A stretch of DNA of 64,000 nt from an uncultured Bacillota bacterium (lineage in GTDB: Bacteria > Bacillota_I > Bacilli_A > RFN20 > CAG-826). The translations under genes and the position numbers were made by a program. Below, piece after piece: positions 14,573 through 50,600 of this stretch. Below the pieces are notes generated by a model that saw only the letters and a list, made by a program, of their open reading frames with translations, made no database searches and was not told where the DNA came from. Within the stretch, counting starts at the first letter, position 1. Each line of letters opens with the position of its first letter. The DNA lies in assembly GCA_949289845.1 (NCBI GenBank), contig CASEPN010000001.1:118887-182886 (forward strand), read 5' to 3'.

Positions 14573-15319
14573 ATGGACCTAGCGATCGACGTCGGGAATA
14601 CCCTGACGAAGTTCGGGCTCGGGGAAGGAGGGGAGATTCTCTCTTCCTACGAGTTCCAGACCGAGCCTTCGAGGAGAAGGGACGAGATCCGTTCCCGGAT
14701 CCTCGCCTTCCTCGCGGGGGAAAGGCCCCGGAAGGCGATTCTTTCCTCGGTCGTGCCTTCCCTCCTCGGGGAGTATCGCGCGGCCCTGGAAGGGATCGCG
14801 GGAAGGCTCATCGTCCTCGGGCCCGGGCTCAGGACGGGGCTCGTCCTTCATGTGGAGAACCCCAAGGAAGTGGGCTCCGACCTCGTCGCGGGCGCCTACG
14901 CGGCGAAGTCCCTCTTCGGGAAGAGCCTCTTCATCGCGGACTTCGGCACGGCGACGAAATACATTTATCTAGACCAAGAGGCGCGTTTTGCGGGGCTTTC
15001 GATCGCGCCGGGCCTTGAAATCTCCGCGAAGGCGCTTTCCAAGGACGCTTCCGCGCTTCCGGAGGTGTCCTTGGAGATCCCTCCCTCCCCAGTCGGGAGG
15101 AACACGGTCCATTGCATGCAGTCGGGGATCCTCTACGGGAGAGCGTACGAATGCCTCGGGTTCCTCGAGTCCTTCTCCAAGGAGGCGGGGGTCGCGCTCC
15201 GCCCTATCCTCACGGGAGGGAATGCCCGGCACATCCTTCCCCTCCTCCCGTGCTTCGAGCATGAGGAGAACCTCGTGCTGAAGGGGCTCCTTCTCATCGG
15301 GGAGGGCTTTTCCCTATGA
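14573..15319 (+). CDS. coaX: type III pantothenate kinase
   Basis: 'MDLAIDVGNTLTKFGL' (the DxGNT motif of CoaX/Bvg accessory factor), 'GSDL', 'IADFGTAT'. Confidence 0.85.
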   Translation: MDLAIDVGNTLTKFGLGEGGEILSSYEFQTEPSRRRDEIRSRILAFLAGERPRKAILSSVVPSLLGEYRAALEGIAGRLIVLGPGLRTGLVLHVENPKEVGSDLVAGAYAAKSLFGKSLFIADFGTATKYIYLDQEARFAGLSIAPGLEISAKALSKDASALPEVSLEIPPSPVGRNTVHCMQSGILYGRAYECLGFLESFSKEAGVALRPILTGGNARHILPLLPCFEHEENLVLKGLLLIGEGFSL

Positions 15320-16014
15320 ACTGGGCGACGATCCTCTTCTGGGTGCTCCTTGTCCTCCTTCTTGCCTTGTTTCTGTTCCTCTATTCCAGGGGCAGGAGGC
15401 ACGAGGGGACGACCGCGCGCACGATCGCCACGGACGGCATCTTCTCCGCGATCATCCTTCTCCTCGGGCTCGTGCCCCAGCTTGGCTACATCCAGCTTTT
15501 CCCAGGGATCTCGCTGACCTTGAGCCATATCCCCGTCCTCATCGGGGCCGCCCTCTTCGGCTGGAAGAGAGGGGCCTTGTACGGGCTCCTTTTCGGCATC
15601 ACCTCCCTCATCCAGGGGGCGATCAACGGGACAGGGCTCAACGTCCTCTTCGTCTACCCATGGGTGAGCATCCCTCCCCGGGTCCTCTTCGGCCTCATCG
15701 CTGGTCTTTGCTTTGCACCCGCGCGCAGGAATCCTAAGATATGGCGGAGCGCGTTCCTGGAGGGCCTCGTCGCCTTCCTCATGACGGCGCTTCATACGGC
15801 CCTGGTGTTCGGCGACCTCCTGGTCTTCTTCCCGGAGGAGACGCTCGCCCTTCTGAGGAGCGTGGAGCCCGTCGCCCAGGGCGTGGGCTTCGCCTTCCTG
15901 GGGGCGCTTCTCCTCGGGGCGCTCGGGGAAGCGACGCTTGCCGCGCTCATCGTGCCTGCCGTCGGGAAGGGGGCCGAAGGGATCCTCCATGGGAGAGAAA
16001 GGGAAAGAAGATGA
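15316..16014 (+). CDS. ECF-transporter substrate-specific (S) component-like membrane protein, possibly for pantothenate (inferred from coupling to coaX)
   Basis: Six-TM small membrane protein. 'TIATDGIFSAIILLLGLVP..IPVLIGAALFGWKRGALYGLLFGITSL' is typical of ECF S components. ATGA overlaps with coaX upstream and the peptidase downstream. Confidence 0.5.
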   Translation: MNWATILFWVLLVLLLALFLFLYSRGRRHEGTTARTIATDGIFSAIILLLGLVPQLGYIQLFPGISLTLSHIPVLIGAALFGWKRGALYGLLFGITSLIQGAINGTGLNVLFVYPWVSIPPRVLFGLIAGLCFAPARRNPKIWRSAFLEGLVAFLMTALHTALVFGDLLVFFPEETLALLRSVEPVAQGVGFAFLGALLLGALGEATLAALIVPAVGKGAEGILHGRERERR

Positions 16015-22194: not shown

Positions 22195-22364
22195 ATTTGC
22201 TCGACGTGCCGTCCTGGCCGATGCTCCTTTTCCCGGGGCTCCTCTTCCTTCTTCTCTTCGTTGCCGTAGGCGCGATCATCGCGGCCATCATCATCGCCGT
22301 GAGGCGGAAGAAAAGGAAGGATGAGGTCGGGCCCTGGGACAAGGACGAGGGGAAGAAGGGATGA
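22191..22364 (+). CDS. small single-pass membrane protein (57 aa), paralog 1
   Basis: Translated by eye as 'MNLLDVPSWPMLLFPGLLFLLLFVAVGAIIAAIIIAVRRKKRKDEVGPWDKDEGKKG'. ATGA overlap with the MFS stop. Below the ORF-track length cutoff. Confidence 0.4.
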   Translation: MNLLDVPSWPMLLFPGLLFLLLFVAVGAIIAAIIIAVRRKKRKDEVGPWDKDEGKKG

Positions 22365-22552
22365 GTCCCGGGCTTCTCGACGTCGCGATCGTCGTCCCGC
22401 CGAACATGATGCTCCTCGCGGCGGTCCTGGTGCTCATCGTCCTCGCGCTCCTCGCCCTTCTTCTTGCCCTCGTCCTGGCCTTCCGGAAGAAAAGGAAGGG
22501 CAGGATTAGCCAGGCGGAACCCCTCGCGGAGGATGTCTCACGCAAGGAATGA
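22361..22552 (+). CDS. small single-pass membrane protein (63 aa), paralog 2
   Basis: 'MSPGLLDVAIVVPPNMMLLAAVLVLIVLALLALLLALVLAFRKKRKGR..' has the same architecture (LLDV..TM..RKKRK) as the preceding gene. ATGA overlap. Confidence 0.45.
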   Translation: MSPGLLDVAIVVPPNMMLLAAVLVLIVLALLALLLALVLAFRKKRKGRISQAEPLAEDVSRKE

Positions 22553-22908
22553 GCCCTTTTTCGAACCTCCTCCGCCTGATATCCGCGCTGATCCTTACCC
22601 TTTTGGTGGAAATTCCTTTCTATTCCCTCTTCCCTTCCCTTAGAAAAAGAAGCTTTCTCAGGTCCGCCTTGCTGGCGAACGTCCTCTCGAACCTGACCCT
22701 CAACCTCTTCCTCCTCCCGATGGAAGGGTCCCTCGGCGATCCTTGGATCTATTTGTTCCTCCTATTCGGCGAGATCCTCGTCTTCCTCTTCGAGTGGGCC
22801 TTCCTCTCTTATAAAAGGGGACTAGGGCCCTCCTTCCCCTTCCTCGTCCTTGCGGCGAACTCCCTTTCCCTCCTGGCGGGGCTCCTTCTTTCCCCTCTGG
22901 CTGGTTAA
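22549..22908 (+). CDS. hypothetical small membrane protein (3-4 TM)
   Basis: ATGA overlap with the previous gene. Hydrophobic segments throughout. Confidence 0.4.
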   Translation: MSPFSNLLRLISALILTLLVEIPFYSLFPSLRKRSFLRSALLANVLSNLTLNLFLLPMEGSLGDPWIYLFLLFGEILVFLFEWAFLSYKRGLGPSFPFLVLAANSLSLLAGLLLSPLAG

Positions 22909-23004: not shown

Positions 23005-24309
23005 ATGATTGCGAAAGCGCGTCACATCGAGCTGCCCAACGTCCTCCTCGCCCATCAGGAACTGGAAGAGGCGCCTTTGCCAAAGTACTGCTACGTCGCA
23101 GGCACGAATGGCCGCTGCGCCTCCTATGAGCTCACGGTGAAGGAGGGGGACCATGTGAGGGTCGGGGAGCGCCTCGGCCTCCGGAAGGGACCCTTCTTCG
23201 AGCAGCCGATCGTATCCACCTGCTCCGGCACCTACCTCGGGATCGAGAAGCACCTCCACCACACGGGGAAGGAGTGCGAGTTCCTGAAGATCGAGAACGA
23301 CTTCAAGGACGAGCCGGATCCTTCCGCGAAGGAGAGGAGCGAGGAGGAGCTCAAGGCCCTGACGAAGGAGGATGTCCTCGCCATCATGCGGGACATGGCC
23401 CTCGTCGGCCTCGGCGGCTCTTCCTTCCCGAGCTACGTGAAGCTCCAGGGGGACCATCAGATCCACACCATCGTCATCAACGGGGTCGAGTGCGAGCCCT
23501 CGCTCGCGAGCGACCACCGCCTCATGCTCGAGCACCCCCACGAGATCATCGAGGGGCTCCGCCTCCTCATGAGGGCCACCGGCGCCAAGGAGGGGAAGAT
23601 CTGCGCGAAGTGGATCTACAAGGACCTCGCGGAATGCTGGTCGAGCGCCCTCGCCGGCGAGGAGGGCTCCGGCATCTCCTTCGCCCCGGTCTGGAACTTC
23701 TATCCCCAGGGATGGGAGGTCGCCTGCATCAAGACCGCGACCGGAATCGACATCCCGAGCGGCCATCTCCCTGCGGAGTTCGGGATCCTCGAGTACAACG
23801 TCGCCACCATCTACTCCCTCTACCTCGCCGCGAAGAAGAGGATGCCCCTCCTCACCCGCTACGTGCAGATCCACGGGGACGGGGTGAAGGAGCAGAAGTT
23901 CCTCAAGGCGAGGATCGGGACCCCTCTCAGGGACCTTCTCCCCCTCGCCGGAGGCTACACCGATTCCGGGAAGAAGAAGCGCATCATCATGGGCGGCCCC
24001 ATGATGGGGAACACCGTGGCAGATGACGACATCATCCTCACCCCCACCGTCACCTCCATCCTCGTGATGGACGAGGAGGTGTGGACCGCCGATAGCTGCG
24101 TCCGCTGCGGCTCCTGCGTCTACAGCTGCCCGACCCACCTCATGCCCGTCCTCATCGCCCAGGCGGTGAAGAGCGGGAACAAGGAGCGGGTCAAGGCGCT
24201 CCACCCCGAGCGCTGCGTCGAATGCGGGCTCTGCGCCTATAGCTGCACGAGCCGCATCAACGTCACCGAGTACGTAAGGAGGGCAAAGCGCATCGCGCGT
24301 CTTTCATGA
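23005..24309 (+). CDS. rnfC: Rnf electron transport complex subunit C
   Basis: 'VGLGGSSFPS' (NADH/FMN-binding region). Two 4Fe-4S motifs, 'CVRCGSCVYSCP' and 'CVECGLCAYSC'. Confidence 0.9.
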   Translation: MIAKARHIELPNVLLAHQELEEAPLPKYCYVAGTNGRCASYELTVKEGDHVRVGERLGLRKGPFFEQPIVSTCSGTYLGIEKHLHHTGKECEFLKIENDFKDEPDPSAKERSEEELKALTKEDVLAIMRDMALVGLGGSSFPSYVKLQGDHQIHTIVINGVECEPSLASDHRLMLEHPHEIIEGLRLLMRATGAKEGKICAKWIYKDLAECWSSALAGEEGSGISFAPVWNFYPQGWEVACIKTATGIDIPSGHLPAEFGILEYNVATIYSLYLAAKKRMPLLTRYVQIHGDGVKEQKFLKARIGTPLRDLLPLAGGYTDSGKKKRIIMGGPMMGNTVADDDIILTPTVTSILVMDEEVWTADSCVRCGSCVYSCPTHLMPVLIAQAVKSGNKERVKALHPERCVECGLCAYSCTSRINVTEYVRRAKRIARLS

Positions 24310-25448
24310 GCGAAGAGAACACCATGCGGCTCCTCCAGGAGCCAAGCCCGCACGTCCGGAGGAAGGACAGCGCCACGAGGATGATGCTTGACGTCCTCCT
24401 CGCCCTGCTCCCTCTCCTCATCTTCTCCTTCATCGTCTACCGCCTCGACGCCCTCAAGGTGTTCGGGATTGCGGTCCCGGCGATGATGATCGCCGAATGG
24501 GTTTTCGTCATGATCAAGGGACGGATGCCCTACGACGGGGAGAAGCATCCCTTCAAGGAGAAGTTCCTCCACGCCCTGAAGCTATACCGCCCGGTGAACG
24601 CCGTGGCCCCCGCCGTCTCTGCCCTCATCTTCGGGATGTGCCTCCCGCCCAGCACGAGCTGGTGGGGCGTCCTCGTCGGGGCGCTCGCCGGCATCATCTT
24701 CGGGAAGCTCCTCTTCGGGGGCCTCGGGCAGAACATCTTCAACCCCGCCGCCGTGGGCATGATCCTCACGCGTCTCAGCTTCTCCAACACGATGAGCTAC
24801 CCCGCCATCCCTTGGGGCGAGGGCACGATGGTCGACGTCGTCACCGGGGGCACCGTCCTTTCCGGCACAATCCAGGGCGGCTACTCCTCCCTCATGGACG
24901 TCTCCCTCCTCGACCTCTTCCTGGGCAGGACCCAGGGGGCGATGGGAGAAGTCTGCAAGGTCCTCATCCTCGTCGGGCTCCTCTATCTCCTGCTTCGCCA
25001 GGCGATCGACTGGCGGGTGACCTTCACCTATATCGGCGCCTTCACCGCCCTCATCGCCATCGCCGGCATCGCCATCGCCGGGGGCGGCATCGTCAAGGAC
25101 TTCGACATCTGGCACTTCATCGGGGTCGAGTTCCTCGCGGGAGGCATGCTCTTCGGGGCGACCTTCATGCTGACCGACCCGGTCACGATGCCGGCGACGA
25201 AGCCGGGGCGCTACATCTACGCCCTCTCCGCCGCCTCCCTCACCGTCCTCATCCGTCTCTTCGCCTCCGCTCCCGAGGGGGTCGGCTACTCGATCCTCCT
25301 CGCCAATCTCATCACGCCGGTCCTCGACCACCACAAGGTGGCCTCGTCCCGGTGGACGTGGAAGAAGTGGCTGACCATCGGCCTCATCCTCCTCGCCGAC
25401 ATCCTCTTCATCGTCATCGGAATCATCTTCGGAGGTAAAGTCAAATGA
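24306..25448 (+). CDS. rnfD: Rnf complex subunit D (NqrB/RnfD family)
   Basis: Polytopic. 'FMLTDPVTMPATKPG' carries the conserved Thr used for covalent FMN. ATGA coupling. Confidence 0.9.
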   Translation: MSEENTMRLLQEPSPHVRRKDSATRMMLDVLLALLPLLIFSFIVYRLDALKVFGIAVPAMMIAEWVFVMIKGRMPYDGEKHPFKEKFLHALKLYRPVNAVAPAVSALIFGMCLPPSTSWWGVLVGALAGIIFGKLLFGGLGQNIFNPAAVGMILTRLSFSNTMSYPAIPWGEGTMVDVVTGGTVLSGTIQGGYSSLMDVSLLDLFLGRTQGAMGEVCKVLILVGLLYLLLRQAIDWRVTFTYIGAFTALIAIAGIAIAGGGIVKDFDIWHFIGVEFLAGGMLFGATFMLTDPVTMPATKPGRYIYALSAASLTVLIRLFASAPEGVGYSILLANLITPVLDHHKVASSRWTWKKWLTIGLILLADILFIVIGIIFGGKVK

Positions 25449-28400
25449 AGATCAAGCTCGACGCAAAGCACGTTCTCTCGGTCGTCGCCGTCCTCGCCCT
25501 CATCGGCGGCGGGGCGGGCGCCCTCATCGGGACGGTGAACTACTTCACCAGCCCTGTCATCAGCGAGAATGACGACAAGAAGGAGAACGAGGCCTACTAC
25601 AAGTGCTTTCCGGACGCGGCCTCCTTCAGCGATGAGACCGAGGTCTCCAGCGGCACTTACATCGAGACGTACAAGAGCGCCCTCGACGCCTCCGGGAACG
25701 AGATCGGCAAGGTGTACCATGCGGTGGGCGCGACCGGCTTCGGCGCGAACGTCGACCTCCTGATTGGCGTCGACGCTGACGGGCTCGCCCACATCGAGAT
25801 CGTCGCCTACGGCCCGGATAACACCGGAGGCAACAACAAGACCGTAGAGGATTGGATCGACTCCATCAACGACGGGAGCGAGACGATCGACGGGGGCACC
25901 ACCACCGGGGCGACCAACACCGCCTCTGTCGTGAGGGCGATGGTCGCCGAGGCCCTCGATCTCTATGAGAACGGCGACGTGACGCCCCCGCCCGTTACCG
26001 GCGGCGAGAAGTACTACAACCTCTTCGAAGGCGGCGCCTCCGCAGGGGACAAGGTGAGCGTTGCCTCTGGAAGCCTCGACCACTACCGCGAGGTGAAGGA
26101 TGCCTCAGGGAACATCCTTGGACGCGCCTACTACGGCGGCGGGCTCAACGTCTTCGGCGTCAGCATCAACGTCATCGTCGGCGTCACCCCCGAGGGGGAG
26201 GTCACGAAGCTCTACCTCGACGCGTACTCGGGCGGCGAGCAGATGGGGACCGACACCACGATCAAGAACTGGATCGACGAGGTCAACAGCGGTGACAGGG
26301 AGTGGACCGCCGGTCCTAGCGCAGGCGCCTCCTATGAGGTTATCAAGGGCGTCATCGACGAGGCTATCGCGCACTATACCTCCGCTGCCCCTGCGCCGAC
26401 CTACGAGGAGTCCGTCTACCTCGGCCTCTTTGAGGGCGCGAGCTCTATCGGCGCCTTCCGCGAGCTGGGCGGGAACTACCTCACAGGGCGCGTGGATGTC
26501 CTGGACGCGGACGGGGAAGTCCTCGGCTACGCCTATGAGGGCGAGGGCAAGAACAGCTACAACGTCCACATTGCCCTCGTCGTCGGCGTGAAGACGGACG
26601 GGACTGTGACGAAGCTCTACCTCGGCGACTACTCTGGTGGGAACCCTGCGGGCACCGAGACGAGCGTCAATGAATGGATCGACAAGGTCAACGACGGCAC
26701 CGGCTCCATCGAGGCCGGCCCGAGCGCGACCTATTCCTACCAGGTCATCAAGGGCATCATCGACGAGGCCGTCGGCTACGCGACCGGCGCCATCGTCGAC
26801 CCGAGTGAGAACTACCTCGAGCTCTTCGAGGGGGCCTCTTCCCTTGGCGAGGAAGTCGAGCTGACCGGCGACTACGAGTACATCGCCTCCTATCGCGAGG
26901 TGAAGGGCAGCTCTGGCGCGGTGCTCGGAAGAGGCTACATCACGAACACCACGAACGTCGGGGATAGGTGGGGCAACCTCCAGCTTCTCATCGGCGTATA
27001 TCCCGACGGCACCATCTCCAAGGTCATCGCCCTTACCGACGAACAGAGCCGCCCGGACGGGACGAACGAGTACATCGAATCCGTGAATGGCGGCGGCGAC
27101 TACGAGGATATCTTCGGCTACGAGGCCTCGAGCGGAACCGTCGGAATTGAGATAACCCATGACGCGATTGCCGAGGCGATCGGGGACTACACCGGCGTGG
27201 CGAACCTCCCTGCCGAAATCACGAAGGCCATGGCGAGCATTCTTCCTGATGCCGCCGGCTGGGGCCAACCCACTGTCGTCAACGAGGGCTACATCATCGG
27301 AAGGATGCCCGTCCTTGACGAGGACGGCGTCGAGACGGGCGCTTCCTACTATCTCTCGGGCGCCGCGAGCGACGGGGAATATGATCTCGTAATCCTCGTC
27401 AAGGAGGATGGGTCCTTCACCCTTAGCCTAGTGAGCGGCGACTGGGACAGCGCCTACCTCGCCGGTGTCGAGGCGTGGATCGCCAAGATCAACGACGGGA
27501 GCGCCCACTACCGTGACGACATCAAGGACTCGGGCGTCAACCAGGCGGCTTATGCGATCGCCGCCAACATCGAGGCGGTCCTCGCCTACGAAACGGAAAC
27601 CACCGAGTCTCCCTACCTCGCCCTTTGGGACGGTTCCTATTCCGTGAGCTCCTCCCAGGCCGTCGAAGGCGGGACCTACCTCCACTCCTACCGCGAGGTG
27701 CGGGACGGCGCCGGGAAGGTCCTCGGAAGGGGCTACCTCACCAAGGTGACCTCCGTCCCGAGCAGTCGCGGGAGCTATGGGGATATCCAGGCCCTCATCG
27801 CGGTCAACAAAGACGGCACCATCAAGGAGGTGACGCTTCTTCAGAACACCCAGTCCATCCCCGGTTCCACCGACGAGTACGCCGGGTTCGTCAATGGCGG
27901 CGGGAACTACGAGGAGGTGCCTGAATATAGCGGCGGCACCATCGGCGTCGACATCCTCAAGGACATGATCGGGGAGGCGCTTACCCACTACGAGCAGAAC
28001 CCCGATCAGGTCGTCGATCCTGCCGAGCCCGTCGTTCCGACCAACATCCCCGAGGCCGTGAAGGCGCTCATCCCGGAGGCCCACTCCTGGAACGCCTTCG
28101 TTGAGCTTTCCGCCGTCTGGCAGGCGACCGGCTACTGGAGCGCCCTTGATGAAAGCGAGGCCGAGATCGGCCGCGTCTACGAGTTCAAGGCCGGGAGCAC
28201 GGGCGATGACAACCTCTACTACGTCGCTCTCGACGAAGACGCCGAGATCATCCAGCTCGAGGTCGTGAATACGACGCTCGAGGGCGAGAACCTGACCGCC
28301 CTCACCACATGGGTCGAGCAGCTGAACACGGGCAAGGCCATCCCGGAGATTCCTTCGGATAGCCCCATCGCCTCCGAGCTCGGATGGGTCGAGTCCGGGA

Positions 28401-28789
28401 TCGAGGACGCCCAGGCCGACTACCTTGGCGACGTCCCCGCCGCGGTGGAGGAGAAGGTCGCTTCCTTCGTCACGGAGAGCTTCGGCGAGAACGCCAAGTT
28501 CGACATGCCTTCCTCTGTCTCCAACGAGGACATCCCCGAGGTCACCAACCGCTATAACGTCTACGTTCCTTCGGACGATCCGACGGGCGGGACCCCGACC
28601 TACCCGGGCGACGTCTGGCTCGCCCATGTCAAGACCGATTCCTATGACGCCTACGTCCTCATCGCCGTCGGCGACCTCATCACGGACGACGTCGACACGG
28701 ATGCGGCCCGCTACCTCGTATGCTCCGAGGAGGGGACCAGGGACACGGAAGCCATCGACGCAGTCGTGGAGGCGCTCCTCGCGCTCTAG
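25445..28789 (+). CDS. rnfG: Rnf complex subunit G, hugely expanded: N-terminal TM anchor plus about 8 tandem FMN-binding-domain-like repeats (1114 aa)
   Basis: N-terminal 'VLSVVAVLALIGGGAGALIG' anchor as in RnfG. Repeat 1, 'DASGNEIGKVYHAVGATGFGANVDLLIGVDADGLAHIEIVAYGPDNTGGN..IDGGTTTGATNTASVVRAM', aligns to canonical RnfG/FMN_bind 'GYGG.I.LLVGID.DGKI.GV.IL.H.ETPGLG....DAITGATITSRAV'. Seven further units of about 130 aa have the same pattern (e.g. 'NVIVGVTPEGEVTKLYL', 'ALVVGVKTDGTVTKLYL', 'LLIGVYPDGTISKVIAL', 'ALIAVNKDGTIKEVTLL') with variant flavinylation motifs (SAGAS, SAT, SSGT, SGGT). Confidence 0.8.
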   Translation: MKIKLDAKHVLSVVAVLALIGGGAGALIGTVNYFTSPVISENDDKKENEAYYKCFPDAASFSDETEVSSGTYIETYKSALDASGNEIGKVYHAVGATGFGANVDLLIGVDADGLAHIEIVAYGPDNTGGNNKTVEDWIDSINDGSETIDGGTTTGATNTASVVRAMVAEALDLYENGDVTPPPVTGGEKYYNLFEGGASAGDKVSVASGSLDHYREVKDASGNILGRAYYGGGLNVFGVSINVIVGVTPEGEVTKLYLDAYSGGEQMGTDTTIKNWIDEVNSGDREWTAGPSAGASYEVIKGVIDEAIAHYTSAAPAPTYEESVYLGLFEGASSIGAFRELGGNYLTGRVDVLDADGEVLGYAYEGEGKNSYNVHIALVVGVKTDGTVTKLYLGDYSGGNPAGTETSVNEWIDKVNDGTGSIEAGPSATYSYQVIKGIIDEAVGYATGAIVDPSENYLELFEGASSLGEEVELTGDYEYIASYREVKGSSGAVLGRGYITNTTNVGDRWGNLQLLIGVYPDGTISKVIALTDEQSRPDGTNEYIESVNGGGDYEDIFGYEASSGTVGIEITHDAIAEAIGDYTGVANLPAEITKAMASILPDAAGWGQPTVVNEGYIIGRMPVLDEDGVETGASYYLSGAASDGEYDLVILVKEDGSFTLSLVSGDWDSAYLAGVEAWIAKINDGSAHYRDDIKDSGVNQAAYAIAANIEAVLAYETETTESPYLALWDGSYSVSSSQAVEGGTYLHSYREVRDGAGKVLGRGYLTKVTSVPSSRGSYGDIQALIAVNKDGTIKEVTLLQNTQSIPGSTDEYAGFVNGGGNYEEVPEYSGGTIGVDILKDMIGEALTHYEQNPDQVVDPAEPVVPTNIPEAVKALIPEAHSWNAFVELSAVWQATGYWSALDESEAEIGRVYEFKAGSTGDDNLYYVALDEDAEIIQLEVVNTTLEGENLTALTTWVEQLNTGKAIPEIPSDSPIASELGWVESGIEDAQADYLGDVPAAVEEKVASFVTESFGENAKFDMPSSVSNEDIPEVTNRYNVYVPSDDPTGGTPTYPGDVWLAHVKTDSYDAYVLIAVGDLITDDVDTDAARYLVCSEEGTRDTEAIDAVVEALLAL

Positions 28790-28792
28790 GAT

Positions 28793-29518
28793 ATGGCGGA
28801 CAAGGCCATCGACATGCGGGGAGAGAGGAAGGAGGCCTTCGTCTCCGGAATCTGGAAGGCCAACCCCCTCTTCGTCTCCCTCCTGGGCTTCTGCCCGGCC
28901 CTCGCCGTCACGACCTCCTTCGAGAGCGCCTTCGGGATGGCGATCCTCTTCACCTTGGTGCTCCTGGGGTCGAACGTCTGCGTCTCGCTCCTCCGGAAGC
29001 TCATCCCGGAAGAGATCACGACGCCCTGCTACATCGTCATCATCGCCACCTTCGTCACGGTGGTGAAGATGCTCTGCGAGGCCTTCCTCCCGGAGCTATA
29101 CACCTCGCTCGGCGTCTTCCTCTCCCTCCTCGTCGTGAACTGCATCGTGCTCGGGAGGAGCGAGGCCTACGCCTCGAAGAACACGGTGCTCAACAGCACC
29201 CTCGACGCCCTCGGGAACGGCATCGGCTTCGGCTGGGCCATCTGCCTCATCGCCCTGGTGAGGGAGGTCCTCGGGACGGGGCAGCTCACCTTCGGGAAGG
29301 TGTTCACCTTCATCCCGGAGTACTCGCTCCCGCTCCTGAAGGTCGACGGGGTCTACGACCTCTCCATCGAGTTCTTCCAGCGTTCGATCGGGGGCTTCCT
29401 CGTGCTGGGGATCGCCCTTGCTATCATCGCCGCGATCGACATCCATAAGAAGGACAAGGCGAGGGTGGACGCCCTCCTCGCCAAGAAGAGGGCCGCGGCC
29501 CAGGAAGGAGCGAACTAG
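28793..29518 (+). CDS. rnfE: Rnf complex subunit E
   Basis: NqrD/RnfE family: 'NPLFVSLLGFCPALAVTTS', 'LGNGIGFG'. Confidence 0.9.
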   Translation: MADKAIDMRGERKEAFVSGIWKANPLFVSLLGFCPALAVTTSFESAFGMAILFTLVLLGSNVCVSLLRKLIPEEITTPCYIVIIATFVTVVKMLCEAFLPELYTSLGVFLSLLVVNCIVLGRSEAYASKNTVLNSTLDALGNGIGFGWAICLIALVREVLGTGQLTFGKVFTFIPEYSLPLLKVDGVYDLSIEFFQRSIGGFLVLGIALAIIAAIDIHKKDKARVDALLAKKRAAAQEGAN

Positions 29519-29521
29519 CCC

Positions 29522-30106
29522 ATGGAATACATCGTCGCCTTCCTCCTCGCCGTATTGACGAGCTCCCTCATCGACAATGTCGTCCTCGCCCGCTTCTACG
29601 GGATCTGCAGCTTCCTCGGGACCGGGAACAAGGTCAAGCCGGCCTTTTCGATGGGGCTTGCGGTGACCTTCGTCATCGTGCTGGCGAGCCTCGTCTGCTG
29701 GCCCCTTTATAACTACGTCCTCGTCCCGGCGAAGATGGAGTTCCTCGACACCATCGTCTACATCCTCGTCATCGCCTCCCTCGTGCAGCTGGTCGGGATC
29801 TTCGTCAAGAAGACCTCGCCCGCCCTCTACAAGGGACTGGGGATCTACCTCCCCCTCATCACCACCAACTGCGCGGTCCTCGGGGTCGCCCAGGGGAACA
29901 CCGACCAGGGGCTCGACTTCCTGAGCTCGATGGGGAACGCGATCGGGACCTCGCTCGGCTACCTCCTCGTGATCGTCCTCTTCGCCCTCATCCGCGAGAG
30001 GCTGGAGAGCGCCGAGACCCCCCGCGCCCTCAAGGGCATCCCCATCGCGATGGTGACCGCCGCCCTCATGGCGCTCGCCTTCATGGGGCTCCAGGGCATC
30101 GCCTAG
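29522..30106 (+). CDS. rnfA: Rnf complex subunit A
   Basis: NqrE/RnfA family: 'NVVLARFYGICSFLG', 'ITTNCAVLGVA'. Confidence 0.9.
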   Translation: MEYIVAFLLAVLTSSLIDNVVLARFYGICSFLGTGNKVKPAFSMGLAVTFVIVLASLVCWPLYNYVLVPAKMEFLDTIVYILVIASLVQLVGIFVKKTSPALYKGLGIYLPLITTNCAVLGVAQGNTDQGLDFLSSMGNAIGTSLGYLLVIVLFALIRERLESAETPRALKGIPIAMVTAALMALAFMGLQGIA

Positions 30107-30322
30107 ATGGACGAGGCCACGGCCAGGGGCCTGGCGATCGCCCTCGTCGTCCTCCTCGCCCTCCTCTTCCTCGGGAGCTTCGTCTGGTACATGAGGACGA
30201 AGCCTCCCAAGGGATGCGAGAGGGTGCGGAAGGACGAGACGGACTGCATCGGCTGCAAGAACGCCGGCTGCCGGCTCTACCGGCCCAAGGAAAATCCCCC
30301 CGAAGAGGGGAAGAAGGAGTGA
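30107..30322 (+). CDS. mini RnfB-like protein: TM anchor plus partial Fe-S (RnfB N-domain-like) motif
   Basis: 'GCERVRKDETDCIGCKNAGC' has 4 Cys with the C-x2-C-x4-C spacing of the RnfB N-terminal Fe-S domain. 71 aa. Confidence 0.45.
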   Translation: MDEATARGLAIALVVLLALLFLGSFVWYMRTKPPKGCERVRKDETDCIGCKNAGCRLYRPKENPPEEGKKE

Positions 30323-30325
30323 GAC

Positions 30326-30673
30326 ATGGACATGAGCCTGCTGGACATGGCCTTCGACAACGGGATGGCGATCCTTTATAGCTTCCTGGTGCTTCTCGCC
30401 CTCGGGGCGATCTTCGCCTTCCTCCTCTGTCTCTTCAGCGTCGTCTTCAAGGTGAAGGAGGACAAGAGGGTAGGGGTGGTGAGGAAGCTCCTCCCCGGGA
30501 TCGACTGCGGGGCATGCGGGAACGCGGGCTGCCAGGAGATGGCGGAGAAGCTCGTCTCGGGCGAAGTCAAGGACCCCGCCCTCTGCCGCCCGGGGAAGAA
30601 GGAGAAGAACTTCGACCCCATCCTCGCCTATCTCAAGGAACACCCCGAGCCCATATACGAGGACGAGGAGTGA
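30326..30673 (+). CDS. rnfB: RnfB N-terminal Fe-S domain protein (truncated RnfB lacking ferredoxin domains)
   Basis: 'LLPGIDCGACGNAGCQEMAEKLVSGEVKDPALCRPGKKE' aligns closely to E. coli RnfB '[38 protein letters not shown]'. An N-terminal TM helix is present and no C-terminal 2x[4Fe-4S] ferredoxin domain is present. Confidence 0.65.
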   Translation: MDMSLLDMAFDNGMAILYSFLVLLALGAIFAFLLCLFSVVFKVKEDKRVGVVRKLLPGIDCGACGNAGCQEMAEKLVSGEVKDPALCRPGKKEKNFDPILAYLKEHPEPIYEDEE

Positions 30674-30763
30674 GCAAGAGGCCTTCCGGAAGGGAGGCCT
30701 TTTCCTTCGCCTTTTCCTCCCTATTCCCGCCCTCCGTTGAGAAACAGACGGGGAGAAACTAGA

Positions 30764-31873
30764 ATGCGCCCCATGAAGAAATGGCTTCCTTTCCTTTTCT
30801 TGCCCCTGCTCCTTGCTTCCTGCGGTTCTCCTGAGGGAGCCTCGGGATCCTTGTCCGGGGACGAGGCTTCGTCCGGGAACGGGGCGACGATCGTCCCGAG
30901 CGGGGACTTCGAGCTCGTCCGCTACCAGGACTTCCTTTCCTTCGGCGCCTATAGCGACCTCCGCTTCTACCAAAGGGAAGGGGAGGATCATGTCGCCCTT
31001 TTCGAAAGCCTCGTGGAGGTATTCGAGCTTCTTTCCCATTACATGGAGACGGACCTTCCCTATGCGGATGTCTCGGGGAAGACGACCGCGAAGACCTTGA
31101 GCGAGGAAGAGGGGGCCTTTCCTCTCGACGAGACGATGGCGGGACTCCTTTCCTTCGCGATCGACGCCCGTTCGATCACCGGAGGCTCGATCGACATCCT
31201 TTCCGGCGGGCTCAACGACCTCTGGAAGGATTCCTATTTGCTGAACAAGGAGGACCCCGTCCTCCCGAGCCAAGCGGACATCTCCCGCGAAATCGCGAGG
31301 ATATCCTCCTCCTCGCTTTCCCTCGCCAAGGATTGGGACGGCTCCTATGAGGTCGAGAAGACAGGAAACGCCCTCCTCGACTTCGGCTCGATGGGGAAGG
31401 GCTACGCGGTGGCGCGCCTCGGGGAGGCGCTCCGCGAGGAAGGGATCGGCTATTTCCTTCTGAACGCCGGGACGAGCTCGATCCTCATCGGGCAGAACCC
31501 CAACAGCGAGGACGGGACCTTCAAGATCGGCTTCTCCGACATCGAAGGAGTCACCTTCCAGGCGAAGGACGTGGCGATCGGCACCTCGAGCGTGACGAAC
31601 CAGCACCGCGTGGACGAGGCCACCGGAACCCTCTATAGCCACGTGATCGACCCCAAGACAGGGAGCGCGGTGCCTTCCCTGACCACCGCGATCGTGATCG
31701 GGGAGGACGCCGGGATGTGCGACGTCTTCTCGACATGGCTCCTCATGAAAGGGGAGGAGGCCGATGTCGGGCTCATCGAAAGCATGGGCTACTCGGTCCT
31801 TCTTTACGACTACCGGAGGGCGACTCCCTTCGTCCACCTGAGCGAGTCCTTCCCCCCGCTGGAAGGGAAGTAG
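30764..31873 (+). CDS. apbE: FAD:protein FMN transferase ApbE, lipoprotein (extracytosolic)
   Basis: Signal peptide with lipobox 'LLLASCGS'. ApbE signature 'DFGSMGKGYAVARLGEAL' and a 'DPKTG' region. Confidence 0.85.
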   Translation: MRPMKKWLPFLFLPLLLASCGSPEGASGSLSGDEASSGNGATIVPSGDFELVRYQDFLSFGAYSDLRFYQREGEDHVALFESLVEVFELLSHYMETDLPYADVSGKTTAKTLSEEEGAFPLDETMAGLLSFAIDARSITGGSIDILSGGLNDLWKDSYLLNKEDPVLPSQADISREIARISSSSLSLAKDWDGSYEVEKTGNALLDFGSMGKGYAVARLGEALREEGIGYFLLNAGTSSILIGQNPNSEDGTFKIGFSDIEGVTFQAKDVAIGTSSVTNQHRVDEATGTLYSHVIDPKTGSAVPSLTTAIVIGEDAGMCDVFSTWLLMKGEEADVGLIESMGYSVLLYDYRRATPFVHLSESFPPLEGK

Positions 31874-32341
31874 ATGGCCTTCCGGGAGAATGTCCGCCGC
31901 CACCTTGGGGACATCCTCCTTTTCCTCGTCCTCTTCCTCGGGCTTCTCGTCGGGACGATCCTCGCCTTCCTCCTCCCGGGCGAGAAGGCCTCTGAGGCCC
32001 TCTTCTACCGGGACGACGCCCTCCTCCTCCGGATCGATCTCGTCCATCCCGAGAAGTCCGTTCCCTACGAGGACACGGAGAAGATCGAAGATCCCTCCTC
32101 CTACGGGGAAGAGGTCATCCTCGCCTACATCATCCAGGGGGAAATGACCCCGATGACCGTCGCCCTTTCCGCGGAAGGGGTTGCCGTCCTCGAGTCGGGG
32201 TGCCCCTCACAGTACTGCGTCGGCCTCGGCTACACGATGGACGTGAGGCGTCCGATCGTCTGCGCCTATAACCACGTCCACGTCGAGTACCAAGGAGCGG
32301 CCGCGGAGGATTCCTCTTCCGGGCCGGACATCATCCTATGA
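31874..32341 (+). CDS. small membrane-anchored protein, possibly NusG-domain-II-like (flavinylation-cluster associated)
   Basis: N-terminal TM 'ILLFLVLFLGLLVGTILAFLL' plus a roughly 110-aa soluble beta-rich domain. Family assignment is from recollection of ApbE-associated clusters and was not verified. Overlaps the next gene (ATGA). Confidence 0.35.
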   Translation: MAFRENVRRHLGDILLFLVLFLGLLVGTILAFLLPGEKASEALFYRDDALLLRIDLVHPEKSVPYEDTEKIEDPSSYGEEVILAYIIQGEMTPMTVALSAEGVAVLESGCPSQYCVGLGYTMDVRRPIVCAYNHVHVEYQGAAAEDSSSGPDIIL

Positions 32342-32862
32342 GAGGCACGGTAAGGAGGATGGCGGCCGACGCGGCGATGCTCGCCCTCGCCCTCGCCCTT
32401 TCGATCGCCGAGAGCTTCATCCCCATATCCGCGGTCCCGGGCTTCAAGCCGGGGCTCGCGAACATCGTGATCCTCCTCCTCATATACCAGTTCTCGTGGA
32501 AGGAGGCGCTCATCGTCGACCTCGGGAGGATTTTCCTCGCCTCCCTCATGACAGGGAGGATCCTCAGCTTCCCCTTCTACATGTCCCTTGCCGGAGGGGT
32601 CCTTTCCTATCTCGGGATGGTCCTGGTGAAGTCCCTCCTTTCGAAGGTATTCACCATATACGGGGCCTCCCTCCTCGGGGCCTTCCTCCATTCCCTGGGC
32701 CAGATCCTAGTCGCGATCCCCCTTCTGGGCACTTCCGCGGTCCTTTGGTACTTCCCCCTCATGGGCCTCACGAGCCTTCTCACGGGCCTAGCGACGGGCT
32801 TCCTCGCGGACAGGATCATCAAGACGAGGGTGTTCGAGTTCCTGAGGATCACGGGAAGATAG
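32338..32862 (+). CDS. Gx-transporter-family membrane protein (PF07456, mis-named 'heptaprenyl diphosphate synthase component I'-like)
   Basis: 'AMLALALALSIAESFIPISAVPGFKPGLANIVILLLIY' resembles the conserved N-terminus of this family. 4-5 TM, 174 aa. Confidence 0.45.
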   Translation: MRGTVRRMAADAAMLALALALSIAESFIPISAVPGFKPGLANIVILLLIYQFSWKEALIVDLGRIFLASLMTGRILSFPFYMSLAGGVLSYLGMVLVKSLLSKVFTIYGASLLGAFLHSLGQILVAIPLLGTSAVLWYFPLMGLTSLLTGLATGFLADRIIKTRVFEFLRITGR

Positions 32863-32899
32863 CCGTTATTTCACCGTTATCTTCATATAATTCCATCAG

Positions 32900-33904
32900 G
32901 TGAACCCCATGACCGGAGGGAGGACGAAGAGCGCCTTCCTTATCGCTTCCCCTTCCGCAGTCCTTTTGCTCTGGCTTTTCGAACTATTGATCAGCGGGAC
33001 TTCCTACGACGCGATGATCGCCCTTCTTTCCATTGGGCTCGGCATCCTCTTCTCCCTGTTCCTTGCCTGGCTCTCCCTGAGGGGCGGGGGTTGGAGGAGG
33101 GCCTCCTCCTTCCTTCCCCTTCTTGTCTTCGTCTTTGAGGCGGCGACCCTCATCGCCCTCCTCCTTGAGGCGGGATTCTCCTATGGGGCGAGGATCGACG
33201 GAGGCTTCTTCCTCGTCGGGAAGGGAATCCGCCTCGTCGGGACAGGGCAGGCCGTCCCTTACCCCGGTGGCGAGGAATGGATGTACGGGATGGACCTATA
33301 TTCCTATCCCTTCCGGTTCGACGTCCCCGTCGCCTTCCTCATCCTTCTCGTCCTCCTCGTTTTTTATAGGAAGAAAGCGAAGGGATGGCTCCTCCGCTTC
33401 CTGAGGATGGACGGGGAGGGGCTCCTGGCGCTCGTGCTCATCCTTCCCTTCGCCCTCGTCTCCATGTCCCGCCTCCTCGGGGCCTTCTATCTCCCCGCGG
33501 AGGGATATCTCCGGGTCCTCTTCCTGGGGTTCCTCCTGGAGGCCCTCCTCTTCTTCCTTGCCCTTTGGAGGGGACAGGCGACGCCATCCCTCATCGCCCT
33601 CGCCCTCGCCCTCGCCTTCCTCGAGGAACATATGAGGCAGGGGTCATCCATCCCTTCTTCCCAGGACGCCTTATTCCTACTACATGGCTTTGGATCCCTT
33701 CAGGGGGAGTGGTATCGCTACGTCGGCACGGGAGAGGTTCCCTTCTCCCTCTTCGCCGATTCCTGGGTCCTGGAGTCCTCGAAGAACATGGGGATCCTCT
33801 CCTGGGAGCTCCTATGGACGCCTGCTGCCGCCCTTCTTTCCTTGCCCCTCCTCCTTTTCTACCCGGAAGAAAGGAAGCGTTTCCTTCTTCCTCAACGTTT
33901 CTAA
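32900..33904 (+). CDS. hypothetical polytopic membrane protein
   Basis: Multiple TM helices. No recognisable motif. Confidence 0.35.
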   Translation: MNPMTGGRTKSAFLIASPSAVLLLWLFELLISGTSYDAMIALLSIGLGILFSLFLAWLSLRGGGWRRASSFLPLLVFVFEAATLIALLLEAGFSYGARIDGGFFLVGKGIRLVGTGQAVPYPGGEEWMYGMDLYSYPFRFDVPVAFLILLVLLVFYRKKAKGWLLRFLRMDGEGLLALVLILPFALVSMSRLLGAFYLPAEGYLRVLFLGFLLEALLFFLALWRGQATPSLIALALALAFLEEHMRQGSSIPSSQDALFLLHGFGSLQGEWYRYVGTGEVPFSLFADSWVLESSKNMGILSWELLWTPAAALLSLPLLLFYPEERKRFLLPQRF

Positions 33905-34857: not shown

Positions 34858-34945
34858 CGGTAAATCGGTAAATCCCTTGGTCGATACTTGATTTCGCTTG
34901 ACTTATCCCAATAATACGTGCCCGAAAGAAGGGATAGAAAACACA
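34858..34945 (+). promoter_or_regulatory. AT-rich promoter region with direct repeat cggtaaat-cggtaaat and a TTGATT-N17-ATAATA sigma70-like promoter
   Basis: 'ccggtaaatcggtaaat' (34858-34873), then 'ttgatt'-17 nt-'ataata' ahead of RBS 'agaaggga' and the ATG at 34946. The 13-mer ggtaaatcggtaa recurs in reverse complement upstream of the LacI gene (19782-19794). Confidence 0.35.
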
Positions 34946-35851
34946 ATGAAGAAACCCATTCTCCTGACCGCCGCGATCGCGGCCGCCACCCTCCTCGCCT
35001 CCTGCGGCGACGGATCCACCTGCAGCTCCTGCCCCGCCGGGAGCGAGGGCGCCAACATCACCCCGATCACCTTCGCGCAGCAGTGCGAGGCCGAGGGCAT
35101 CGACTTCACCTACGAGGACCCGAACGCGGCCTACTACATCCCCGAGGCGCTCCCGAGCAACACCGACGACATCGACCTCGAGCTCGGCGGCTCCACCGAT
35201 GCCGCCGGCAATCCGGCTGACAACGAGAGCGAGACCTCCTCTTCTTACTACACCATCGACTACGCGATGAGCAGGCTCACCACCTACTGGACGACCTACA
35301 CTTGGGCCGAGGCCGCCGCGGACGACACCGCGACCGCCTCCACCATCGCCGAGGCCGCTGCGCTCGAGAATGCCAAGTACGTCACCGATCTCTTCCCGAA
35401 CGATGGCAAGGAGTACGTCATCGAGTCCCAGAGGGGCTGGCCCTATGCCGCCGTCTCCTACTCCACCGTCGACGAGGACGGCACCCCCCGCGTCTCCACC
35501 GCCATCCCTGGCGCCAGGAAGGGCGAGGACGGCATCTGGAGGATGACCGGCTACATCACCATGAAGGACATGGTCTACAACATGGTCCGCACCGGCGAGG
35601 CCATGGCGCTCCTCTATGAGTGGCACCCCGAGGCCAGCGCCTGCTACGGCGGCCGCCTTGCCCTCGAGGTCGACTTCGACGCCACCTACGCCAGCGTCCC
35701 GGCCACGGAAGAGGGCGGCTCCCCGACCCAGGTCAAGCTCACCAAGGGCATGACCAAGGAAGAGCTCCCCGCCAACGCCAGCTACGTCGTCTTCAGCCTC
35801 AAGGTGACCCACCTCTACTCGATGGGCTACGCCAACGACTGGACGAAGTAA
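34946..35851 (+). CDS. hypothetical lipoprotein
   Basis: 'MKKPILLTAAIAAATLLASCGDG' signal peptide with lipobox. Acidic and Thr/Tyr-rich. Confidence 0.5.
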   Translation: MKKPILLTAAIAAATLLASCGDGSTCSSCPAGSEGANITPITFAQQCEAEGIDFTYEDPNAAYYIPEALPSNTDDIDLELGGSTDAAGNPADNESETSSSYYTIDYAMSRLTTYWTTYTWAEAAADDTATASTIAEAAALENAKYVTDLFPNDGKEYVIESQRGWPYAAVSYSTVDEDGTPRVSTAIPGARKGEDGIWRMTGYITMKDMVYNMVRTGEAMALLYEWHPEASACYGGRLALEVDFDATYASVPATEEGGSPTQVKLTKGMTKEELPANASYVVFSLKVTHLYSMGYANDWTK

Positions 35852-35881
35852 GTCCGTCCTCGGAGAAAGAAAGATCGGGAA

Positions 35882-35909
35882 GGCCTCGCGGGAACGCGGG
35901 GCCTTTCTT
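35882..35909 (+). terminator. rho-independent terminator
   Basis: 'ggcctcgcg-ggaa-cgcggggcc' hairpin followed by 'tttctt'. Confidence 0.5.
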
Positions 35910-36021
35910 CATCCCTCATCCACGCTCCTAAGGACCGCAAGCCGGGGCCATGGGAATCTCTACCCGCGTGGTGGAATTATTCGATGGCCCCTGCATCTTT
36001 CGCGGAGCGTGCCCTTGCCCC

Positions 36022-36050
36022 TTGATGCCCCCATGGGGAAGTGCTATATT
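36022..36050 (+). promoter_or_regulatory. sigma70-like promoter for the tRNA cluster (TTGATG-N17-TATATT)
   Basis: Hexamers at 36022-27 and 36045-50. tRNA-Ala starts 22 nt downstream. Confidence 0.45.
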
Positions 36051-36071
36051 CCGCGATGCCGCGAGGCGGCA

Positions 36072-36147
36072 CGGGGCATTAGCTCAGCGGTAGAGCACCT
36101 GCTTTGCAAGCAGGGGGTCGGGGGTTCGAGACCCCTATGCTCCACCA
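36072..36147 (+). tRNA. tRNA-Ala (anticodon TGC)
   Basis: Cloverleaf with 7-bp acceptor stem including the G3:U70 Ala identity pair. Anticodon loop 'tttgcaa'. T-arm 'gggggttcgagacccc'. CCA encoded. Confidence 0.9.
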
Positions 36148-36164
36148 GGAAGATGCCCGCGGAT

Positions 36165-36241
36165 GGCTGAGTAGCCCAGCTGGTCAGAGCGATCGGTTCA
36201 TACCCGACAGGTCGGGGGTTCAAGTCCCTCCTCAGCCACCA
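36165..36241 (+). tRNA. tRNA-Met (anticodon CAT), elongator type (G1:C72)
   Basis: Acceptor 'ggctgag/ctcagcc'. D-arm 'tagcccagctggtcagagc' like E. coli tRNA-Met(m). Anticodon loop 'ttcatac'. CCA encoded. Confidence 0.8.
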
Positions 36242-36336
36242 TCGAGATAGGGAGCCCGGAAGGGCTCTTTTCCGTTCCAGGGAAAAGGAGGGAAAGGCTT
36301 GCAAGAAGCCTTCCCAAGCGCTTAACTTCCCCCGCC

Positions 36337-36412
36337 GGACCATTAGCGCAGCGGTTAGCGCGGGCCCCTTATAAGAGCTAGGTCGCAGGTTCAAATCCTG
36401 CATGGTCCACCA
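36337..36412 (+). tRNA. tRNA-Ile-like with anticodon TAT (UAU)
   Basis: Perfect acceptor 'ggaccat/atggtcc'. Anticodon loop 'cttataa' (34-36 = TAT). The body ('ttagcgcagcggttagcgc', 'aggtcgcaggttcaaatcctgc') closely resembles bacterial tRNA-Ile2, with CAT replaced by TAT. CCA encoded. Confidence 0.7.
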
Positions 36413-36419
36413 GGAGAGC

Positions 36420-36446
36420 GCGCCCGGCGTGAGCCGGGCTTTTCTT
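36420..36446 (+). terminator. rho-independent terminator after the tRNA cluster
   Basis: 'gcccggc-gtga-gccgggc' followed by 'ttttctt'. Nearly the same structure follows tRNA-fMet at 51884. Confidence 0.65.
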
Positions 36447-36490
36447 CTCGCTCCCATATGGATTCCACCCCCCCATGCTAGAATCAGGGC

Positions 36491-38026: not shown

Positions 38027-38070
38027 CGTTCCTGGAAACGATGAAGGGAACATCCGCGTAATACCAACAT

Positions 38071-40326: not shown

Positions 40327-40384
40327 ACAAGATTAATCCTCGATTTCTTGGCCCGTTCCAGCGGAATAGCCTTATCATTCGCCT

Positions 40385-47185: not shown

Positions 47186-47251
47186 AGGCAAGATTATAGG
47201 GAGGGAGAATTCCCTCCTGAAGGTATAATGGGAGCGCTTGGAGGACAATCT

Positions 47252-50538: not shown

Positions 50539-50600
50539 GCTGGAGCCATTATATCGATGGCGGTGTAACTTCCGCAGTCATCTCGCTATATAGTGTCTCC

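Follow-up and report, generated by a model that had tools for sequence, protein, structure and literature searches.

We analyzed four open reading frames (ORFs) that lie in the same direction on the + strand at positions 30764-33904 of a 64,000-nucleotide stretch of contig CASEPN010000001.1 from an uncultured Bacillota bacterium (GCA_949289845.1; the whole stretch is hereafter called the window). They encode, in order, an ApbE protein, a NusG_II/DUF1312 protein, a PF07456 protein, and a polytopic membrane protein. The first three, apbE (30764..31873), an eetA homologue (31874..32341), and an eetB homologue (32338..32862), likely constitute a flavin-cofactor maturation module of the adjacent Rnf operon (rnfC-rnfD-rnfG-rnfE-rnfA, a 71-aa ORF, and a short rnfB; 23005..30673, + strand), which is the client directly upstream and in which RnfC, RnfD, RnfG, RnfE, and RnfB have NCBIfam or Pfam matches. 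The case is built on family membership, the lipobox and catalytic residues of ApbE, acceptor motifs in the same operon, and synteny, all read from the window and its relatives; flavin adenine dinucleotide (FAD) binding and export by EetB and flavin mononucleotide (FMN) transfer by ApbE are carried over from Listeria and other homologues. A cluster of this kind, the ApbE/EetA/EetB set, has already been published and is ordinary. A first-pass annotation of the window, made from the sequence, had placed four ORFs at these coordinates and had guessed the three families; all four ORFs are present on the + strand, and a Pfam scan returned exactly PF02424, PF07009, and PF07456. The four ORFs have a GC3 of 0.77-0.87 and a GC2 of ~0.4, values like those of the unambiguous genes in this window, whose overall GC content is 62%.

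Gene order links the three genes to one another and to Rnf. Across 31,910 genomes, eetB adjoins eetA in 3,328 and apbE in 2,169 (Rivera-Lugo et al. 2023, mBio; PMC9973259), and Rnf is the system most frequently found beside eetB (572 Clostridia genomes; PMC9973259). For our own synteny set we used an EetB alignment to search GTDB species representatives, kept the best 80 loci together with flanks of at most 10 kb, and searched their ORFs with hidden Markov models (HMMs) iterated from the window proteins. EetA, mostly directly upstream of eetB, was found in 72 of these 80 loci, ApbE in 58/80, the Rnf core in 33/80, and EetA, ApbE, and the Rnf core together in 23/80, all of these counts being lower bounds, since many contigs end early. 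The co-occurrence of PF07009 and PF07456 with apbE and FMN-binding or Rnf genes, which the first-pass annotation had put forward, is borne out by both the published survey and our 80-locus count. The comparison of gene neighborhoods that it had suggested also revealed a conserved order, rnfB-apbE-eetA-eetB: in a Ruminococcaceae metagenome-assembled genome (MAG; locus L068) and a Clostridia MAG (locus L046), a Pfam re-check showed rnfC-D-(G)-E-A-B followed by ApbE, NusG_II, and Hpre_diP_synt_I, as in the window.

The closest relatives of the window are ENA MAGs (ERZ162680xx-ERZ162682xx) and the GTDB record CASFDV01, whose EetB proteins share 70-97% identity with that of the window; beyond the lineage, the nearest are MAGs of Acholeplasmatales, Mollicutes, and Bacilli. 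The order common to the close relatives is rnfCDGEA, the small ORF, the short rnfB, apbE, eetA, eetB, and degV. In the window, apbE abuts eetA, and eetA and eetB overlap by 4 nt, which suggests translational coupling. A consensus scan, the sole source of both signals, placed a terminator-like hairpin right after rnfB (30683-30708, + strand) and a promoter-like site, TTGAGA-17-TAGAAT, overlapping the apbE start (30737-30765, + strand); together these hint that apbE-eetA-eetB may be transcribed separately from the rnf genes. An Rfam scan of the window returned tRNAs only, with no FMN or other riboswitch before apbE or eetB.

The 369-aa ApbE is, as judged from its sequence, most likely an extracytosolic lipoprotein FAD:protein FMN transferase. 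From the ATG start at 30764 (an alternative TTG lies at 30737), its N-terminus, 'MRPMKKWLPFLFLPLLLASCGSP', has a K/R within the first seven residues, then six residues without D, E, R, or K, and then LL-A-S-C with Cys20 at 30821-30823. Written as MRPMKKWLPFLFLPLLLAS|CGSP, it starts with an n-region of positive charge, continues with an h-region free of charged residues, and ends in the lipobox L-A-S-C (LLAS|C), features that fit the earlier claim of an extracytosolic lipoprotein, and the lipobox string quoted for that claim is indeed there. Under the PROSITE PS51257 rule, such an N-terminus would be classed as that of a lipoprotein. The lipobox Cys column is kept in 84% of the aligned ApbE ORFs.

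Membership of the ApbE family is clear (PF02424: E = 2.2e-34, 119.6 bits against a Pfam cut-off of 25.6). A phmmer search matched 4XGW, 2O18, 7ESA, 6NXI, and 1VRM, which are FMN transferase structures from E. coli, Vibrio, Listeria, and Thermotoga, and a profile of 24 sequences (the window protein and 23 relatives) matched 13 ApbE/FmnB/Ftp sequences of the PDB (E = 1e-82 to 1e-47), the best being Listeria FmnB (7ESA). The score against NCBIfam PRK10461 was 59.7 bits against a cut-off of 498, which places the protein in the family and not in the enterobacterial (E. coli-type) equivalog. The columns found to be invariant in alignments of 24 and 62 sequences are all kept in the window protein (W154, G208, K212, G213, G236, S275, Y291, H293, D320, S323, and T324). 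Among them, S275, H293, and D320 correspond to the Ser-His-Asp center of Vibrio cholerae ApbE (S241/H257/D285) and Listeria FmnB (S257/H273/D301; PMC12052999), at a spacing of 18 and 27 residues compared with 16 and 28 in the characterized enzymes.

The predicted targets of this ApbE are encoded in the same operon. RnfG and RnfD of canonical Rnf are covalently flavinylated by ApbE, and this is required (PMC12052999); the flavinylation motif is D-x-x-[S/T]-G-A-[S/T] (PMC12052999). The window RnfG carries TGAT at residues 154-157 (25904..25915, + strand), in its first FMN-binding module, and RnfD carries TGGT, a variant of the SGAT site, at residues 180-183 (24843..24854, + strand). The RnfG site, as TGAT or TGAS, is conserved in five of five close relatives (L001, L004, L006, L007, and L008), and so is the TGGT site of RnfD (5/5). 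When five Rnf subunits and 11 uncharacterized or lipoprotein ORFs of the window were checked for the motif, [ST]GA[ST]-type sites occurred only in RnfG, and the TGGT variant in RnfD. We infer that TGGT is probably accepted by ApbE.

The 174-aa product of 32338..32862 is, by analogy with its Listeria homologue, most likely an FAD-export subunit resembling the substrate-binding (S) components of energy-coupling factor (ECF) transporters. It matches PF07456 over profile positions 1-146 of 147 (E = 3.8e-37, 128 bits against a cut-off of 30), a family also assigned to all 63 EetB homologues, and it keeps the family-invariant residues E25, P34, G39, N42, H118, and Q122; the string 'LALALALSIAESFIPIS..PGFKPGLANIV', by which it had been recognized in the first-pass annotation, is present. 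A weak match to PF12822 (ECF_trnsprt) was found in five of 22 EetB family members (best E = 3e-4) and in L046 (E ~1e-4), and the EetB profile matched no PDB sequence even at E <= 10. The function of the family comes from Listeria, where PplA becomes flavinylated only if EetB (PF07456) is present or FAD is added from outside, and where EetB binds FAD in a pull-down and has the ECF S-component fold in an AlphaFold model (PMC9973259). There, EetB, the ECF-T protein FmnA, and the shared EcfA/A' ATPases form an FAD exporter that feeds the extracytosolic FmnB (PMC9973259). The label 'Gx-transporter-like', given earlier to the 174-aa protein, identified the right family (PF07456) under an outdated name: 'Gx transporter', which is also the NCBI name of the homologue P0037, and 'heptaprenyl diphosphate synthase component I' are legacy names of PF07456, whose tested function is FAD export.

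The 155-aa product of 31874..32341 is a single-pass protein with a NusG-II/DUF1312 beta domain (PF07009). Its AlphaFold2 model has an N-terminal helix (residues 2-33) followed by the strands of the beta domain (mean predicted local distance difference test score, pLDDT, 77), in agreement with its earlier description as a transmembrane (TM) anchor plus a beta domain. Foldseek matched this model to DUF1312 structure 4ESN, to Lin0431 of L. innocua (3LD7/2KPP), and to domain II of Aquifex NusG (1NPP) with a probability of 1.00 and a TM(target) of ~0.7, and the sequence profile reaches 2KPP (E = 0.0019) and 4ESN. The positive-inside rule, applied by eye to the sequence, indicates that the beta domain should face outwards. 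This domain keeps a cysteine signature, C-P-x-x-x-C ... (I/V)-V-C-x-x-N, with C110, C115, and C130 in columns that are conserved at 88%, 100%, and 100% among 72 sequences (the window protein and the locus ORFs). PF07009 was found in nine of nine database homologues, and the HMM iterated from the window protein picks up 72 of the 80 ORFs adjacent to eetB. In the part of Data Set S1 of Rivera-Lugo et al. that we covered (PMC9973259), PF07009 proteins are labeled EetA and stand beside Sec/SPII lipoprotein ApbEs; that part holds no Acholeplasmatales or RF39 rows.

We propose that the three proteins would act as follows. EetB, together with a shared ECF-T/ECF-A/A' module encoded elsewhere, would carry FAD from the cytosol to the outside of the membrane. 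The lipid-anchored ApbE, with Mg2+, would then transfer FMN from FAD through a phosphoester bond onto Thr157 of RnfG and probably Thr183 of RnfD, with release of AMP. EetA, with its outward beta domain and three-Cys site, would be an accessory partner of EetB and might help to pass FAD from EetB to ApbE. We infer three of these steps, namely that EetB works with a distant ECF module, that ApbE accepts TGGT, and that EetA plays the part given to it, and the 331-aa product of the fourth ORF would merely occupy the spacer between eetB and degV.

Several observations weigh against assigning a maturation function to these genes. The EetA match to PF07009 is marginal (E = 2.1e-7; 31.5 bits, where the Pfam gathering threshold is 29.6). 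The related EetA proteins of L012 and L040 score 64-65 bits, and shorter relatives score 64-108 bits overall. We attribute the low score to a lineage-specific insert of ~25 residues (roughly 57-80) in the ectodomain, which makes the protein 155 aa long compared with 118-129 aa elsewhere. Deletion of eetA in Listeria was without phenotype (PMC9973259), which makes any role for EetA speculative. ApbE has TSSVT in place of the majority 'TSG.Y', and a few more of its residues differ from columns that are 70-85% conserved. The column that tells FMN transferases (Y60 in E. coli) from FAD pyrophosphatases (N55 in T. pallidum) also aligns ambiguously in ApbE: Tyr residues in SHY and PYAD flank it, and MAFFT places an Asp there; the N-terminal 114 aa searched alone against the PDB gave no match. 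The RnfD site is TGGT and not SGAT, and we found no test of an Ala-to-Gly substitution in the literature. Comparison of the EetB profile with the window's own ECF S-component by hhalign returned an uninformative probability of 3%, and no ECF-T/CbiQ or ECF-A protein was found among the scanned window ORFs or within 10 kb of eetB in relatives. An ECF module encoded away from eetB is nevertheless the common arrangement, as only 291 of 4,214 eetB genomes have an adjacent ECF-T and 796 an adjacent ECF-A (PMC9973259). The window also encodes an ECF S-component beside coaX (15316..16014, + strand; PF12822, E = 8e-18), which implies a shared ECF energizing module elsewhere in the genome. This S-component follows coaX (type III pantothenate kinase) in the pair at 14573-16014 and is probably of the pantothenate type.

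The system that most resembles the window is the Rnf-linked apbE-eetA-eetB cluster of Clostridia (PMC9973259; L068 and L046), which has the same families in the same order and orientation after rnfB, a lipoprotein-type ApbE, and an eetA that abuts or overlaps eetB. The window differs from it in having a 115-aa RnfB with a 71-aa Cys-motif protein, a seven-module RnfG, the EetA insert, and the strain-variable membrane ORF after eetB. The extracellular electron transfer (EET) locus of Listeria monocytogenes shares an ApbE-type FMN transferase (FmnB), EetA (PF07009), and EetB (PF07456), but its client is PplA/Ndh2 EET and it includes the dedicated ECF-T protein FmnA, whereas the client in the window is Rnf and no ECF-T or ECF-A was found nearby. 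The Listeria-type genes Ndh2, PplA, DmkA/B, and FmnA were not found among the scanned window ORFs. The ApbE of Gram-negative bacteria with Nqr or Rnf (Vibrio cholerae and E. coli) is likewise a periplasm-facing lipoprotein, acting on the SGAT Thr of NqrB/C or RnfD/G; these systems are without EetA/EetB, and their ApbE has low sequence identity to that of the window. The alternative Gram-negative flavin exporter is presumably the MATE-type Bfe of Shewanella. Such an exporter is used by some Gram-negatives and is not co-localized with apbE (PMC9973259). Ftp of Treponema pallidum (TP0796), an ApbE-family lipoprotein from a bacterium with a reduced genome, is matched by the ApbE profile at E = 1e-70; its FAD pyrophosphatase activity is due to an Asn in place of the Tyr that stacks against the isoalloxazine (PMC4767422). 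Synteny with eetAB and the acceptor motifs argue that the window ApbE is a transferase rather than an Ftp-type enzyme.

The Rnf operon itself is unusual, and the evidence for this is independent of the accessory genes: it has a short RnfB and a multi-module RnfG. At 30107-30673, RnfB is 115 aa long and consists of a TM helix and a PF04060 iron-sulfur (FeS) domain without Fer4 domains; ahead of it lies a TM protein of 71 aa, whose motif, PKGC-x10-C-x2-C-x4-C, resembles the cluster motif of RnfB. This pairing is shared by L004, L006, and L008 and by loci of Bacilli and Acholeplasmatales MAGs (L012, L019, and L040). RnfB is 260-296 aa long in Clostridia loci; that of L068 and L046 is a full-length polyferredoxin (266-294 aa, FeS and three Fer4 domains), and their rnfD-rnfE gap of ~625 bp fits only a normal-sized RnfG. 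We found no description of the short RnfB arrangement in the literature searched, including that on Mollicutes-like bacteria. RnfG (25445-28789; 1,114 aa) consists, according to a unit HMM, of seven tandem RnfG/FMN_bind-like modules (residues 47-177, 187-318, 321-450, 454-590, 599-719, 721-855, and 874-994) followed by a tail of ~120 aa; a BLASTP self-comparison revealed no internal repeats. The canonical acceptor TGAT occurs only in module 1, module 6 has SGGT (residue 829), and the other modules are degenerate. RnfG ranges from 938 to 1,114 aa among relatives, and the RnfG of L040 (Acholeplasmatales) is 1,353 aa long with four SGA[TS] sites. Multi-flavinylated RnfGs have been noted before, and a second extracytosolic electron path has been proposed for them (Meheust et al. 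2021; PMC8238504).

The first-pass annotation had concluded that the accessory genes and the giant RnfG mark a dedicated flavin-based module and not a plain ferredoxin:NAD+ Rnf. In its strongest form, this would make the locus an outward, EET-like flavin electron conduit in which ApbE loads many FMN domains. The seven modules of RnfG, an RnfB without Fer4 domains, the four-site RnfG of L040, and the published proposal of a second path through multi-flavinylated RnfG (PMC8238504) all lean that way. The accessory genes, however, cannot tell whether an Rnf is plain or part of a dedicated flavin module, because canonical Rnf itself needs flavinylated RnfG and RnfD and because L068 and L046 have the same gene order behind canonical rnf; that part of the claim is therefore not supported. 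A continuous flavin wire is not encoded either, given that the canonical site is confined to module 1 of RnfG, and the motif check of the five Rnf subunits and 11 ORFs extended it to no other protein. RnfC, RnfD, RnfE, and RnfA are all ordinary, and the scan of window ORFs turned up no EET gene of the Ndh2, PplA, or Dmk type; we consider an outward conduit improbable.

A second alternative reverses the flow of flavin. EetB would import flavin as RibU does, and ApbE would be an Ftp-type FAD pyrophosphatase that provides FMN to a flavin-auxotrophic gut bacterium with a reduced genome. It draws on the modeled fold of EetB, which is that of the importer RibU (AlphaFold; PMC9973259), on the good score of the pyrophosphatase Ftp of T. 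pallidum (PMC4767422) against the ApbE profile, on the ambiguous alignment at the discriminating Tyr/Asn position, and on the nearest outside relatives (Acholeplasmatales, Mollicutes, and Bacilli MAGs), whose genomes tend to be reduced. In Listeria, however, EetB cannot replace RibU for uptake, the directionality being strict (PMC9973259), and across Bacillota eetB is conserved beside apbE and flavinylation clients. The general-base His and the Ser/Asp of the triad are intact in the window ApbE, the same operon encodes conserved acceptor motifs, and the Rfam scan showed no FMN riboswitch ahead of the genes; salvage is accordingly very unlikely. A literal reading of the legacy names, with a heptaprenyl diphosphate synthase subunit for the menaquinone side chain and a NusG-like transcription factor, has nothing behind it except what Pfam calls PF07456 and PF07009 and what JGI calls some homologues, and it is effectively refuted by the TM anchor of the 155-aa protein, its lack of NusG NGN and KOW domains, the experiments that assign PF07456 to FAD export (PMC9973259), and the absence of polyprenyl synthase component II and menaquinone genes among the scanned window ORFs.

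The fourth ORF (32909..33904, + strand), which the first-pass annotation had counted as a member of the cluster, lies outside the conserved module: it is a lineage-restricted, strain-variable membrane protein in the eetB-degV spacer. Its best start, ATG 32909, is preceded by AGGTGA as the Shine-Dalgarno sequence and gives 331 aa as in a 100%-identical homologue (P0064); a start at GTG 32900 would give 334 aa. It fills an exact indel, with 1,041 bp in the window (32863-33903) compared with 31 bp in L001-L003, and it is absent from L001, L002, L003, and L004, where the region from eetB to degV spans no more than ~120 bp. It is present at the same site in L006 and L007 and broken or frame-shifted in L008, P0071, P0072, and P0076. 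Comparison with the intact L006 copy gave a ratio of nonsynonymous to synonymous divergence (dN/dS) of 0.24, which indicates a real gene where it is intact. The ORF has no Pfam or NCBIfam match, and neither do its 13 homologues, all of which are at least 68% identical to it. A profile search of 1.84 billion representatives returned members of the lineage and fragments, and otherwise two weak partial matches, P0087 and P0088, in which 50-80 residues of the profile align within proteins of 975 and 4,342 aa. No paralogue was found in the window by tblastn, and the AlphaFold2 model was unusable (pLDDT 37.6). A mobile-element test detected no terminal direct or inverted repeats flanking the 1,041-bp indel, only CT-rich low-complexity repeats. 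A further promoter-like site, conserved in sequence among relatives, lies ahead of degV at 33926-53.

Divergence across the locus is mosaic over 25445-32341 when the window is compared with L001, L004, L006, and L007, with the extracytosolic RnfG, ApbE, and EetA the most divergent. Between the window and L006, amino acid identity is 99% for rnfC (synonymous divergence, dS = 0.08), rnfD (dS = 0.06), rnfA (dS = 0.18), and degV (dS = 0.09), and 94% for eetB (dS = 0.38); it is 72% for rnfG (dS = 0.57), 62% for eetA (dS = 0.75), and 56% for apbE (dS = 1.13). That rnfG, apbE, and eetA diverge more at synonymous sites as well suggests recombinational exchange of alleles of the outward-facing parts. 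A more speculative proposal, which we regard as rather unlikely, is that the module serves a clade-specific, non-canonical Rnf, with a minimal RnfB, the 71-aa C-x2-C-x4-C protein, and the seven-module RnfG, in which the alleles of RnfG, ApbE, and the EetA ectodomain are exchanged between near-identical strains. If so, the co-diversification of RnfG, ApbE, and EetA would point to a physical cooperation of the EetA ectodomain with both of the others, e.g., in FAD handover, and would provide the first clue to EetA function; it would also suggest that selection like that on surface antigens acts on the Rnf maturation machinery in wall-less gut or rumen Bacilli.

Other features of the window lie farther from the module. 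Upstream of rnfC (20977-22908) are a protein resembling the major facilitator superfamily (405 aa) and small membrane ORFs (63 and 119 aa) without family; the position of these ORFs is kept in L001-L003 and partly in L006 and L007, and not in L004. Downstream, at 34898-40326 and 47228-48301, are predicted lipoproteins of 317, 511, 751, and 357 aa with L(L/A)(A/S)(S)C lipoboxes and no Pfam family, a run that would fit a lipoprotein-rich surface. GC content drops to 0.53-0.58 at 40000-44000 and 50000-60000, compared with ~0.62-0.64 elsewhere; these stretches may be acquired DNA, and they encode a 911-aa protein of the ATP-binding cassette type, AAA_14/DUF4143 and ATPase_2/DUF234 ATPases, and a GIY-YIG protein. 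Five tRNA genes are present (36073-36409, 45733-45820, and 51799-51872), three of them clustered at 36.1-36.4 kb, and a reverse-strand ORF at 36044-36709 was taken as spurious because it overlaps this cluster.

The main value of this analysis is a corrected annotation, in which 'heptaprenyl diphosphate synthase I/Gx transporter' and 'NusG domain II' become an EetB/EetA pair for FAD trafficking. Such a pair beside ApbE should not be taken as the sign of an exotic respiratory module. The published association of Rnf with eetAB, which has been stressed for Clostridia, is extended here to a lineage of high GC content that has its nearest outside relatives among Acholeplasmatales, Mollicutes, and Bacilli MAGs. 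Should the side observations hold, the mosaic divergence and the minimal RnfB of this lineage would amount to a natural experiment on the surface-exposed, interacting parts of the flavinylation machinery.

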